From NCBI RefSeq assembly GCF_056746865.1, contig NZ_CM163382.1: a DNA stretch of 64,000 nt. One strand, given 5' to 3'. This document shows, one piece after another, positions 18,533 to 22,816 of this stretch (position 1 is its first letter; the number at the start of each line of letters is the position of its first letter). A model generated the notes under the pieces. The model was not told the DNA's origin, did no database searches, and saw only the letters and a list, made by a program, of their open reading frames with translations. The translations under genes were made by a program, and so were the position numbers.

Positions 18533-19059
18533 ATAAAACCGCCAGCAATCGGAGCAAAGATAATCCGCATTCCGGGAGTTGTGAGCCTTTCAACTATTTC
18601 TATTTCCAACGGTGGTTTGGGCTTTATATATTTTTTTCTGATGGACTCTAGCTCAGTTTTTAAATAAAAATGCAAACTAAATTGCTTCAATTAAATAAAG
18701 TGCCGATTATTACTTGATACGTAATTATTGTTGGTGATTTTGTTTGTACACCATCAGTGTATATCTCAATAACCCCTGAATAAGTAGCACTGAATAGGTA
18801 TAAGGGATGTAGCCTTTTTAAATGGATTTCTTATGCTAAAAATGATCGTCGATTTCCCTATAAAATGTGAGCGATGCCGAAAGAAATAAAATTAGTTATT
18901 GCATTTGAAGTTTAGATGAAAGATTATCATTTGTCATACAAATGAGGGGTGGTATGTTACTAGCCAATTAAAAAAGAACGCCATATTTATTGATGATTGA
19001 TCCCCCGGAAGGGGGGAACCATCGGGCATAAATGGGTATGAAGTAATGGAGTATTAGTT

Positions 19060-19789: not shown

Positions 19790-21217
19790 ATGTCGATCAA
19801 AACCAGTAATACAGATTTTAAGACACGCATCCGTCAGCAAATTGAAGATCCTATCATGCGCAAAGCGGTGGCAAACGCGCAGCAGCGTATTGGGGCAAAT
19901 CGGCAAAAAATGGTCGATGAATTGGGGCACTGGGAGGAGTGGCGCGATCGGGCCGCCCAGATACGTGATCATGTTCTGAGTAATCTCGACGCTTATCTGT
20001 ACCAGCTCTCAGAAAAAGTGACACAAAACGGCGGTCACGTCTATTTTGCAAAAACCAAAGAAGACGCCACCCGCTATATTTTACAGGTTGCCCAACGCAA
20101 AAATGCCCGGAAGGTGGTGAAATCTAAATCGATGGTGACCGAAGAGATTGGTGTCAATCATGTGTTGCAGGATGCTGGCATTCAGGTGATTGAAACCGAT
20201 CTGGGTGAATACATTCTCCAGCTGGATCAAGATCCGCCCTCTCATGTTGTGGTCCCGGCAATTCATAAAGATCGCCATCAGATCCGTCGAGTGCTACACG
20301 AACGTCTGGGCTATGAGGGGCCGGAAACGCCTGAAGCAATGACCTTATTCATTCGGCAAAAAATCCGCGAAGATTTCCTCAGTGCTGAAATAGGTATTAC
20401 CGGCTGTAATTTCGCGGTGGCAGAGACCGGTTCGGTATGCCTGGTGACCAATGAAGGTAATGCGCGAATGTGTACCACGCTGCCTAAAACGCATATTGCA
20501 GTGATGGGAATGGAGCGTATTGCCCCCACGTTTGCCGAGGTAGATGTATTGATCACCATGCTGGCGCGCAGTGCCGTTGGTGCACGTTTGACGGGATACA
20601 ACACCTGGCTGACAGGACCGCGCGAAGCGGGGCACGTTGATGGTCCTGAAGAGTTTCATCTGGTTATTGTCGATAACGGGCGTTCTGAGGTGCTGGCCTC
20701 TGAATTTCGGGATGTGCTGCGCTGTATTCGCTGCGGGGCTTGTATGAATACTTGTCCGGCATATCGCCATATTGGCGGTCATGGATATGGCTCTATTTAT
20801 CCAGGGCCAATTGGTGCGGTGATTTCTCCGCTACTTGGCGGCTATAAAGATTTTAAAGATTTACCCTACGCCTGCTCTTTATGCACTGCTTGTGACAGCG
20901 TGTGTCCGGTGCGTATTCCGCTGTCAAAACTGATTTTGCGTCATCGTCGGGTGATGGCTGAAAAAGGGATCACCGCAAAAGCAGAGCAACGGGCGATAAA
21001 AATGTTCGCTTATGCCAATAGTCATCCAGGATTGTGGAAAGTCGGGATGATGGCCGGCGCTCATGCGGCAAGCTGGTTTATCAATGGCGGCAAAACACCA
21101 CTCAAATTTGGCGCGATTAGCGACTGGATGGAAGCACGCGATCTTCCTGAAGCTGACGGAGAGAGTTTCCGTAGTTGGTTTAAGAAACATCAGGCGCAGG
21201 AGAAAAAGAATGGATAA
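19790..21217 (+). CDS. ykgF: 4Fe-4S ferredoxin-domain lactate-utilization protein (LutB-like), 475 aa
   Basis: CIRCGACMNTCPAY and CSLCTACDSVCP ferredoxin motifs; DUF162 region. Confidence 0.8.
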   Translation: MSIKTSNTDFKTRIRQQIEDPIMRKAVANAQQRIGANRQKMVDELGHWEEWRDRAAQIRDHVLSNLDAYLYQLSEKVTQNGGHVYFAKTKEDATRYILQVAQRKNARKVVKSKSMVTEEIGVNHVLQDAGIQVIETDLGEYILQLDQDPPSHVVVPAIHKDRHQIRRVLHERLGYEGPETPEAMTLFIRQKIREDFLSAEIGITGCNFAVAETGSVCLVTNEGNARMCTTLPKTHIAVMGMERIAPTFAEVDVLITMLARSAVGARLTGYNTWLTGPREAGHVDGPEEFHLVIVDNGRSEVLASEFRDVLRCIRCGACMNTCPAYRHIGGHGYGSIYPGPIGAVISPLLGGYKDFKDLPYACSLCTACDSVCPVRIPLSKLILRHRRVMAEKGITAKAEQRAIKMFAYANSHPGLWKVGMMAGAHAASWFINGGKTPLKFGAISDWMEARDLPEADGESFRSWFKKHQAQEKKNG

Positions 21218-21905
21218 TCGGAGCGAATTTTTGAATAACGTTGCTCAGGCACTGGGTCGCCCGTTGCGACTTGAACCGCAAGCAGAAGATGCGCCGCTTA
21301 ACAACTATGCTAACGAGCGGCTTACCCAACTTAACCAACAGCAGCGCTGTGACGCGTTTATTCAGTTTGCCAGCGATGTTATGTTGACGCGCTGTGAGCT
21401 GACCAGCGAGGCGAAGGCGGCAGAAGCTGCAATACGTCTGTGTAAAGAGCTGGGAGATCAGTCGGTCGTGATTAGCGGTGACACGAGGCTGGAGGAATTG
21501 GGGATTAGCGAACGTTTGCAGCAGGAATGCAATGCCGTTGTTTGGGATCCGGCGAAAGGTGCCGAGAATATCTCGCAGGCAGAGCAGGCTAAAGTGGGTG
21601 TCGTGTATGCTGAATATGGTTTAACCGAATCGGGAGGCGTGGTTCTTTTTTCCGCCGCCGAGCGCGGGCGTTCATTGAGCCTGCTCCCGGAATCTTCTCT
21701 TTTTATCCTGCGTAAAAGCACAATCCTGCCGCGTATAGCGCAACTTGCAGAAAAATTGCATCAGAAAGCGCAGGCCGGTGAACGAATGCCGTCATGTATT
21801 AACATCATCAGTGGTCCCAGTTCAACGGCGGACATTGAGCTTATCAAAGTCGTCGGGGTTCATGGTCCGGTGAAAGCGGTGTATCTGATTATTGAGGATT
21901 GCTGA
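21210..21905 (+). CDS. ykgG: LutC-like protein (DUF162), 231 aa
   Basis: Start MDNRSEF overlaps the ykgF stop by 8 nt (translational coupling); track ORF 21063..21905 trimmed. Confidence 0.75.
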   Translation: MDNRSEFLNNVAQALGRPLRLEPQAEDAPLNNYANERLTQLNQQQRCDAFIQFASDVMLTRCELTSEAKAAEAAIRLCKELGDQSVVISGDTRLEELGISERLQQECNAVVWDPAKGAENISQAEQAKVGVVYAEYGLTESGGVVLFSAAERGRSLSLLPESSLFILRKSTILPRIAQLAEKLHQKAQAGERMPSCINIISGPSSTADIELIKVVGVHGPVKAVYLIIEDC

Positions 21906-22011
21906 GAGTGATATGAAGTCTGGACATAAACCTGAAGTCGGCATACGAGGTTGTGAATAGCGTTAAGGACAACCTGACTTAACCCCGTTCCGTCATGGTT
22001 ATGCTGCTCTT

Positions 22012-22052
22012 CTGTAAATATCCTGGCATTAGTAATGCCAGGATATTTACAG
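22012..22052. terminator. 41-bp perfect palindrome (20-bp arms, single central base) between convergent ykgG and ykgH; probable bidirectional terminator
   Basis: ctgtaaatatcctggcatta-g-taatgccaggatatttacag read directly. Confidence 0.5.
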
Positions 22053-22147
22053 TGAAAAAGACAGGAATCCATTCCTGAAGACGGGCTCCCTTCCCGGTCA
22101 TTGTCACTATAGTTTTATACAGGCACTCTCTGTCAGAATGCTGTTTA

Positions 22148-22816
22148 TTACTGCCCAGAGTTTTGTTGGTATTCATCTACCATTTTTTTGACAAGGCAAA
22201 ACATTACAGAAATTACAATGCTTATAAAAAATCCCAGAGCCAGGCAAATGGCAGCAGGGTATTTATTTTTTATTTCTGGTGAGCTTATAGTTACACAGCC
22301 ATCACCGTTCGGATACAATGACCAGTTCCTGGTCAGGTATATCATTTTTGTATAAAGCTCACTGTTAATTGCTGAAGGTGTTTGTATCTCATCGAGAACT
22401 TGCCTGCCATTATGATATTCTGACGCATACCATTTGATAATAGACGCCTGCACGCGAGATATTTCCGCTTCAGCAGTTGGTAAATCTCTCTTATCTCCTG
22501 ACCATTCCAGCTTTATTTCTCTGTTCTTGACATCTGGGCTGGTCTGAAAAAATGTAGTAATTCGCTGAATAACATCTTCAGTCATTGTGGTCTGACAGGC
22601 AAAGTTATTATTGCTATCACAGCTAACAAGTATGCCTGGTGTTGTCTGGTTTATTTTTAGGCTGTAACTCACTTTTATATTATCTTTATTGATATACAGA
22701 AACAACAGCACCATTGCCATACAGATAGTTATAATAAAAAGGATAATACGAATCTTTTTCTTCAGATAAAATAAAATCTCAATCAGATCGATATCCTGTT
22801 TGATTTGTTCACTCAT
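22148..22816 (-). CDS. ykgH: predicted membrane protein, 222 aa
   Basis: ORF with N-terminal transmembrane segment and a second near the C-terminus; position between ykgG and betA. Confidence 0.7.
   Translation of the reverse strand: MSEQIKQDIDLIEILFYLKKKIRIILFIITICMAMVLLFLYINKDNIKVSYSLKINQTTPGILVSCDSNNNFACQTTMTEDVIQRITTFFQTSPDVKNREIKLEWSGDKRDLPTAEAEISRVQASIIKWYASEYHNGRQVLDEIQTPSAINSELYTKMIYLTRNWSLYPNGDGCVTISSPEIKNKYPAAICLALGFFISIVISVMFCLVKKMVDEYQQNSGQ

Follow-up and report, generated by a model that had tools for sequence, protein, structure and literature searches.

A 41-bp perfect palindrome between the convergent genes ykgG and ykgH of Escherichia coli and its possible role at transcript 3' ends

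The stretch of DNA analysed here (64,000 nt of contig NZ_CM163382.1, hereafter the window) includes the 3' ends of two convergent genes, the positions of which were taken from the annotation of E. coli strain 118UI, whose sequence is 100% identical to the window at this locus. On the plus strand, ykgG (21210 to 21905; LutC/YkgG) represents the last gene of the lactate-utilisation operon ykgEFG, while the AT-rich gene ykgH (22148 to 22816) converges with it on the minus strand and exhibits a GC content of 30-42%, as compared with 50-58% in its neighbours. The two genes are separated by a spacer of 242 bp, within which a palindrome at positions 22012-22052 starts 106 nt past the ykgG stop codon and ends 95 nt past the ykgH stop codon; on the plus strand, the untranslated tail of ykgG leads into this palindrome. 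When mapped on NC_000913.3, the palindrome occupies positions 324560-324600 of MG1655, and the RefSeq record of that strain holds no annotated feature at this site.

The promoter region of ykgH has been flagged as associated with H-NS (PMC3946193). The gene itself was frequently found to be damaged: AR_0013 (contig L021, 1049-1549) and two metagenome contigs lack ~165 bp of its interior, O157:H7 carries an internal stop codon and RM9088 a frameshift. ykgH may be dispensable.

The presence of a 41-bp perfect palindrome between convergent ykgG and ykgH, as proposed in the initial annotation, was borne out by the gene annotation and by all 20 of the 20 arm pairs. The left arm (22012-22031, CTGTAAATATCCTGGCATTA) and the right arm (22033-22052, TAATGCCAGGATATTTACAG) are 100% complementary and flank a single central base, G22032, corresponding to a perfect 20+1+20 arrangement on both strands. 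The outer 10 bp of each arm (CTGTAAATAT and ATATTTACAG) are A/T-rich (80% A/T), the inner 10 bp (CCTGGCATTA and TAATGCCAGG) form a core of 50% GC with two CCWGG sites, and the 20-bp stem as a whole has a GC content of 37%. Further, imperfect complementarity of the CUCUU/AAGAG type was observed in the sequences flanking the palindrome.

Across the 64 kb window, no other tight inverted repeat comes close to the palindrome in length and no other one of at least 12 nt is perfect, the runners-up displaying matches of 73-92%, and none of 100 dinucleotide shuffles of the window yielded a comparable match. Folding of the 41-mer as RNA gave -27.8 kcal/mol on either strand, and folding in a 76-nt context gave -33 to -35 kcal/mol (z of -7 to -9); as single-stranded DNA, the 41-mer folded at -19.1 kcal/mol (z of -11.9). 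The inner core stem by itself accounted for -12.4 kcal/mol, with a loop of effectively 3 nt.

To place the palindrome among known elements, its distribution was surveyed. The locus was identified in 5141 of 5426 complete E. coli genomes (95%), once in each; where two places were reported per genome, these represent the two strands of one palindrome. The check for other genomic copies that had been suggested for this site thus returned a single locus per E. coli genome. The palindrome was absent from the phage genomes and viral contigs searched, and matches in plasmids corresponded to F-primes or to chromosomes filed as plasmids, with no true plasmid copy among them. Since it is confined to a single locus and absent from phages and viral contigs, the palindrome is not a REP, MITE or IS-derived repeat. 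Specifically, membership of the REP/BIME family was rejected on the basis of one locus per genome and 37% GC versus hundreds of dispersed, GC-rich and imperfect copies of ~35 bp, and a MITE, an IS remnant or abutted IS ends were rejected as no further copies were found in E. coli genomes, phages or viral contigs. An Rfam scan of positions 21700-22400 returned only matches resembling miRNA precursors or hairpins, far under their gathering scores.

A search of metagenome contigs with one arm produced 14 matches, 7 of which represent the locus described here; each of the remaining 7 consists of a lone arm that is not paired with a second one, and several of these seem to lie in coding sequence. 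Three contigs from short-read metagenome or SRA assemblies were shown to break inside the palindrome (L013, with its end at 1472; L014, with its end at 1192; and L032, at its start), indicating that the palindrome breaks de Bruijn or short-read assemblies. In a further metagenome contig (L035), similarity to the E. coli spacer stops at ~946, which corresponds to window ~22062 and lies 10 nt past the right end of the palindrome, with unrelated sequence beyond; this break may reflect an insertion or rearrangement. As regards the suggested recombination-prone cruciform, the palindrome was retained in 95% of complete genomes and is hence stable in evolution. One insertion was observed: E. coli RM9088 (contig L009, 1528-2350) carries IS1A inside the right arm, at window positions ~22038-22046, with a 9-bp target duplication (CCAGGATAT).

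Three major alleles were found to cover 97% of genomes. The perfect allele, with G or C at its centre, was present in ~1956 records (38%), the K-12-type allele (C16T and T22C) in 1875 (36%) and the B2-type allele (G15A, with A at the centre) in 1171 (23%), while rare alleles exhibited changes in the outermost 3 bp. The RNA duplex comprises 20 perfect base pairs in the window; in the K-12 and B2 alleles it measures 19-20 bp and includes one wobble or mismatch. All three major alleles were predicted to fold at -20 to -28 kcal/mol. Since the perfect allele occurs on both flank haplotypes and forms the hub of the allele network, it is probably ancestral, as judged from these sequence relationships. 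The centre base (22032) is G, C or A depending on the lineage. If template switching inverted the hairpin loop, G would be exchanged for its complement C, and point mutation accounts for this swap equally well. A template-switch 'correction' of the K-12 allele to the perfect allele was rejected, as correction from either arm predicts sequences that were not observed.

Every arm substitution proved to be one-sided, and no compensatory base-pair changes were found across lineages; this absence of covariation is not counted against the structure, divergence being too low. Variable columns were equally frequent in the palindrome (6 of 41) and in its flanks (15 of 106 and 10 of 95). At the level of sequence comparison, selection on the palindrome structure is thus neither supported nor excluded.

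Homologues of YkgH were essentially restricted to E. coli and Shigella. In the search for outgroups, a single scan of genome contigs with YkgH retrieved just two tiny E. coli-like contigs of 256 and 272 bp, from the Nocardioides malaquae Y6 and Amycolatopsis orientalis KCTC 9412 assemblies, respectively (L003 and L004). Both consist of E. coli ykgH and spacer sequence, the latter bearing the K-12-type palindrome allele, and they look like E. coli contamination. A divergent ykgH-like gene, with 67% nucleotide identity and an internal stop codon as assembled, was observed in a metagenome contig (L012, 280-1098), where it adjoins a fragment of an autotransporter beta-domain; its context is a different one and the palindrome is absent.

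Relatives that possess ykgEFG, namely Shimwellia and metagenome or assembly contigs, resemble E. coli as far as the ykgG stop codon and not beyond. No spacer homology was detected at these YkgG orthologue loci, the palindrome is absent, and ykgG is followed by a different gene, encoding a GntP permease, Hcp, IS1 or DUF386. An unrelated GC-rich hairpin of 10-11 bp, distinct for each locus, was identified 10-15 nt past the ykgG stop codon, and in the one locus for which the flanks were read it is not followed by a U-run. Hairpins thus recur at the end of the operon, while the palindrome described here is a novelty of E. coli.

Immediately to the left of the palindrome, seven E. coli lineages share a block of 40 nt (21966 to 22005) without any variation, while the 60 nt before it contain 13 variable sites. 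The block holds a plus-strand bubble of C over G and the end of a minus-strand ORF of 65 codons. Two minus-strand ORFs extend over the palindrome, of 65 aa (21979-22176) and 70 aa (21860-22072), and both are open in the seven lineages. Between this strain and K-12, ~11 nucleotide differences in these palindrome-spanning ORFs lead to 7 amino-acid changes, and because of this substitution pattern and of an abundant RNA that ends inside the ORF, both were judged to be non-coding. The 65-codon ORF runs from within the 3' end of ykgH over a U-run and the palindrome, the latter encoding a hydrophobic stretch (...WIPVFFTVNILALLMPGYL...). It is labelled as a hypothetical protein in some genomes, and gaps in the locus tags of MG1655 (b0309) and 118UI (RS01800) suggest that it was formerly called as a gene.

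The initial annotation had also stated that the palindrome is longer and more perfect than typical intrinsic terminators. Canonical terminators possess a G+C-rich stem of ~5-14 bp with a short loop; the palindrome forms a hairpin too, but its perfect 20-bp stem, about twice the usual length and with 37% GC (50% in the inner 10 bp), falls outside this range of size and composition. The convergent arrangement of ykgG (plus) and ykgH (minus) is that of bidirectional terminators of the SEnd-seq class. For a U-tract, at least 5 U among the 8 nt directly 3' of the stem were required, and no such tract follows the full stem on either strand (UGAAAAAG on the plus strand and AAGAGCAG on the minus strand). 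As no U-tract follows on either strand, the palindrome is not a canonical intrinsic terminator. In agreement, a terminator scan reported none at the palindrome on either strand.

Published transcript data for this region were all obtained from K-12, which carries the imperfect allele. In the curated K-12 Term-seq lists, covering three conditions, no RNA 3' ends were found 7-9 nt past the stem or at the distal edges of the palindrome, the plus strand offering little information owing to repression by YieP. Neither were convergent 3' ends observed that flank or overlap one another across the hairpin, the minus-strand end lying before it and a plus-strand end being unlisted (again under YieP repression). 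The supplementary data of TERMITe contain no entry for the palindrome site, and PMC9262186 holds nothing on it.

The minus strand does possess a mapped end close by. The sole terminator-like site found by the scan of the region is a small minus-strand hairpin with a U-run (22055 to 22077), composed of CAGGAAUGGAUUCCUG (22077-22062) followed by UCUUUUU (22061-22055). Its stem of 6 bp has a predicted stability of ~-6 kcal/mol in the window, and of -4.4 kcal/mol in K-12, where it does not adjoin the U-run. Using Term-seq of K-12, Adams et al. (2021) mapped a strong 'orphan' minus-strand 3' end at 324603 (PMC7815308), which was listed for two or more of the growth conditions tabulated in that study. 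This position equals window 22055 and lies 3 nt ahead of the palindrome on the minus strand (...CAGGAATGGATGCCTGTCTTTTT|CACTGTAAAT). The ykgH transcript thus ends at the last U of UCUUUUU, 7 nt past the small stem, and the site at 22055-22077 is likely to be a weak intrinsic terminator of ykgH and of its 3'UTR RNA.

The resulting ykgH 3'UTR (22055 to 22147, minus strand) comprises ~93 nt and represents a putative Hfq-associated sRNA that stops 3 nt short of the palindrome. The 'ykgH 3'UTR' was reported as a candidate Hfq-bound sRNA by RIL-seq (PMC5145812), and in the study of Bar et al. (2021) its northern blots were negative while RNA-seq reads accumulated (PMC8175672), the northern probes of that study mapping to window ~22069-22110. 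A role for the palindrome as terminator hairpin of this Hfq-dependent sRNA was rejected, as the mapped end at 324603 precedes it.

A minus-strand Rho termination region was assigned to MG1655 324578 (PMC7815308), with upstream/downstream reads of 160/16 in untreated cells and of 572/199 in the presence of bicyclomycin, as measured over windows of 800 nt. Beyond the palindrome, the minus strand contains a rut-like, C-rich and G-poor tract (21880 to 21980), in which windows of 40 nt hold 11-13 C and 2-7 G. Its most skewed windows (21880-21929) show a C-G difference of +9 to +10, at or above the 99th percentile of the window, and the remainder one of +4 to +7. Judged by its composition, this tract is a candidate Rho loading region for ykgH read-through.

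The curated K-12 Term-seq lists, which cover three conditions, report no plus-strand 3' end for the spacer (PMC7815308). YieP represses ykgEFG ~tenfold in standard media (PMC7642389), and the plus-strand data are silent because of this repression. A perfect match to the YieP operator motif (ATTTGTATGACAAAT) was identified at 18929-18943, ~120 bp upstream of ykgE, in a spacer of low GC content (31-39%), which fits repression of ykgEFG by YieP. A plus-strand Rho termination region, with a Rho score of 6.7 in the bicyclomycin data and likewise measured over windows of 800 nt, is located at 324913, antisense to ykgH; in the presence of bicyclomycin, downstream reads (260) exceed upstream reads (172). 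Much of the RNA in this region may derive from antisense promoters within the AT-rich ykgH, not from ykgEFG. A modest plus-strand bubble of C over G lies just upstream of the palindrome (21970-22009).

These observations bear in two directions on the earlier proposal of a bidirectional terminator: the convergent position and the very stable hairpin hold, while the missing U-tract and a minus-strand 3' end that precedes the palindrome do not fit. Transcripts reading through on both strands with no 3' end at the site had been named as the outcome that would contradict termination, and the published K-12 Term-seq data come close to this on the minus strand, with Rho-sensitive read-through at ~324578. 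A role in transcript 3'-end biology is most likely, and one as primary terminator unlikely.

The explanation favoured here, tentatively and with a likelihood somewhat short of even, regards the palindrome as a REP-like 3'UTR hairpin that lacks a U-tract and is common to both tails, serving as a read-through back-stop or insulator and as a cap against 3' exonucleases. Upon transcription, the palindrome would form a very stable RNA hairpin within both convergent 3' untranslated tails. On the minus strand, most ykgH transcripts stop 3 nt ahead of it, at the weak hairpin and UCUUUUU, as Term-seq showed in K-12, and polymerases that read through would copy the palindrome and then the C-rich, G-poor tract, where Rho would halt them. 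On the plus strand, the ykgEFG mRNA, for which the spacer offers no intrinsic terminator, would probably be ended by Rho further downstream, after which 3' exonucleases would trim it back to the base of the hairpin, leaving a defined and protected 3' end. The hairpin would in this manner act as a two-way insulator and 3'-end cap for convergent ykgG and ykgH.

This cap and insulator reading is supported by the extreme stability of the hairpin on both strands in the three major alleles, by the missing U-tracts, with the small minus-strand hairpin as the only terminator-like site, and by the 3' end at 324603 together with the Rho regions at 324578 (minus) and 324913 (plus). It is further supported by the C-rich tract on the minus strand and the C-over-G bubble on the plus strand, by the recurrence of operon-end hairpins in relatives, and by the published analogues among REP elements and stem-loops. 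Conversely, the reading is weakened as no plus-strand 3' end is listed at the palindrome in the curated Term-seq data (YieP-repressed), as the plus-strand Rho signal may start inside ykgH, and as the palindrome varies like its flanks, by one-sided changes, which provides no positive evidence of selection. The 20-bp stem is, moreover, far longer than needed against exonucleases, which also counts against it. The stability of the hairpin, the missing U-tracts, the minus-strand 3' end ahead of the palindrome and the Rho-sensitive read-through are matters of record, while the role on the plus strand and any stabilising effect are inferred. The palindrome is real and statistically striking, yet a biologically modest and fairly ordinary feature.

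A weak, symmetric intrinsic terminator appears an unlikely alternative, in which the inner stem (CCUGGCAUUA/UAAUGCCAGG) would be followed on both strands by the outer arm (AUAUUUACAG) in the role of an imperfect U-tract and preceded by its A-rich counterpart, as in a two-way terminator. The site between convergent genes suits such a layout, as do the -12.4 kcal/mol of the inner stem by itself and the 80% A/T of the outer 10 bp, which would make for a weak RNA-DNA hybrid past the core stem; SEnd-seq work likewise describes many non-canonical-looking bidirectional terminators at convergent E. coli genes. Yet both strands read AUAUUUAC after the inner stem, and its 4 U among 8 nt are too few for the criterion of the scan; K-12 Term-seq in three conditions places no 3' end within or directly past the distal arm of either strand, and minus-strand read-through beyond the palindrome is Rho-sensitive.

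It is also improbable, if conceivable, that the palindrome has no present function and arose as a by-product of the origin or insertion of the ykgH segment (e.g. by inverted duplication or template switch), followed by neutral drift. Its lineage-specific occurrence would be in keeping with this, the homology of relatives ending at the ykgG stop codon and ykgH being an AT-rich orphan, as would a perfect allele that acts as network hub on both haplotypes, with derived alleles that are one-sided and uncompensated, a rate of variation equal to that of the flanks, and flanks that are imperfectly complementary too. A chance origin is nevertheless vastly improbable, yet 95% of genomes keep the palindrome with a strong hairpin in every allele, and it would be remarkable if its placement right next to a mapped RNA 3' end and between two rut-like tracts were accidental.

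Processing by RNase III, as in retroregulation by lambda sib, was considered a decidedly doubtful explanation, according to which only read-through RNA would contain the full 20-bp duplex and then be cut. Cleavage would either destabilise the read-through RNA or, after trimming to the Hfq-bound U-run, generate the 324603 end. A perfect RNA duplex of ~20 bp is about the minimal good substrate of E. coli RNase III, and the uninterrupted duplex encoded in the window reaches this length. The K-12 hairpin before 324603 is furthermore very weak (-4.4 kcal/mol) and set off from the U-run, which makes simple intrinsic termination uncomfortable, and the ykgH 3'UTR RNA is Hfq-associated. Against this, the 3' end lies 7 nt past the CAGG...CCUG stem, at the end of the U-run, an arrangement that is usual for intrinsic termination. 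There is correspondingly little likelihood that the palindrome acts as an RNase III-dependent switch common to both convergent units, which would silence read-through and yield the Hfq-bound 3' end of the ykgH 3'UTR.

Concerning proteins acting on the DNA, a peak of 5.6 (cut-off 4.0) for RpoE holoenzyme was reported by genomic SELEX at old coordinate 323832, in the convergent spacer (PMC5493296). A sigma-E promoter behind this peak was rejected, as no convincing -35/-10 pair was found in the region. The old coordinate presumably corresponds to ~324610 on the current map (window ~22060), assuming an offset of ~778 nt. An operator of the GntR-type regulator YieP within the palindrome was likewise rejected, its motif being absent from the ykgG-ykgH spacer, and a TGGTATTACCA dyad is confined to the K-12 allele. 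For the protein-binding site envisaged in the initial annotation, no evidence was found, the YieP motif matching upstream of ykgE instead. A DNA-level site, be it an operator for a dimeric or tetrameric protein or a cruciform for a structure-specific one, is thus very improbable in spite of its perfect dyad symmetry and the weak RpoE peak in the spacer, as 41 bp is much longer than usual operators, the site lies downstream of both genes, its single copy offers no regulon-like motif family, centre and arm positions vary freely, and neither a sigma-E-like promoter nor a YieP motif is present.

If the palindrome does cap and insulate transcripts, U-tract-less palindromes besides REP repeats would shape 3' ends between convergent genes. 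Such a hairpin would affect expression of the lactate-utilisation operon ykgEFG, which is reported to be implicated in the fitness of E. coli in the inflamed gut (PMC9701030), and could affect the candidate Hfq-bound small RNA from the ykgH 3'UTR too. The three natural alleles (perfect, K-12 and B2) provide a ready-made comparison for the importance of stem perfection. The spacer also adjoins ykgH, a gene mentioned in several metabolic-engineering and synthetic-biology papers.

Among known systems, REP/BIME elements share with the palindrome an extragenic position, a stable 3'UTR hairpin without a U-tract (here between convergent genes) and the proposed dual role of limiting read-through and blocking 3' exonucleases. 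They differ as a repeat family that is GC-rich, with shorter and imperfect stems, whereas the palindrome is single-copy, has 37% GC and a perfect 20-bp stem, and exhibits no sequence similarity to REP. REP elements were described as partly Rho-dependent attenuators and as mRNA stabilisers, including at convergent genes (bioRxiv 10.64898/2026.03.23.713779). Intrinsic and bidirectional terminators resemble it as strand-symmetric hairpins of convergent genes, with a GC-richer core in an A/T-rich outer part; unlike these, the palindrome lacks a real U-tract, has a stem of about twice the usual length and is preceded by the minus-strand 3' end. The lambda sib/tI system shows a purely structural likeness, with a long duplex downstream of a gene that is completed only on reading past a weaker stop. 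In the study of Dar and Sorek (2018), Rho-terminated transcripts, once trimmed, are described to end at protective stem-loops (PMC6061677). The palindrome is comparable as a stable, U-tract-less hairpin upstream of a Rho region that could halt 3'-to-5' trimming, and differs from those stem-loops in its unusually long and perfect stem and in that its plus-strand 3' end at the hairpin base is a prediction. By analogy, the palindrome would functionally most resemble REP-type 3'UTR hairpins and the protective stem-loops of Rho-terminated transcripts.
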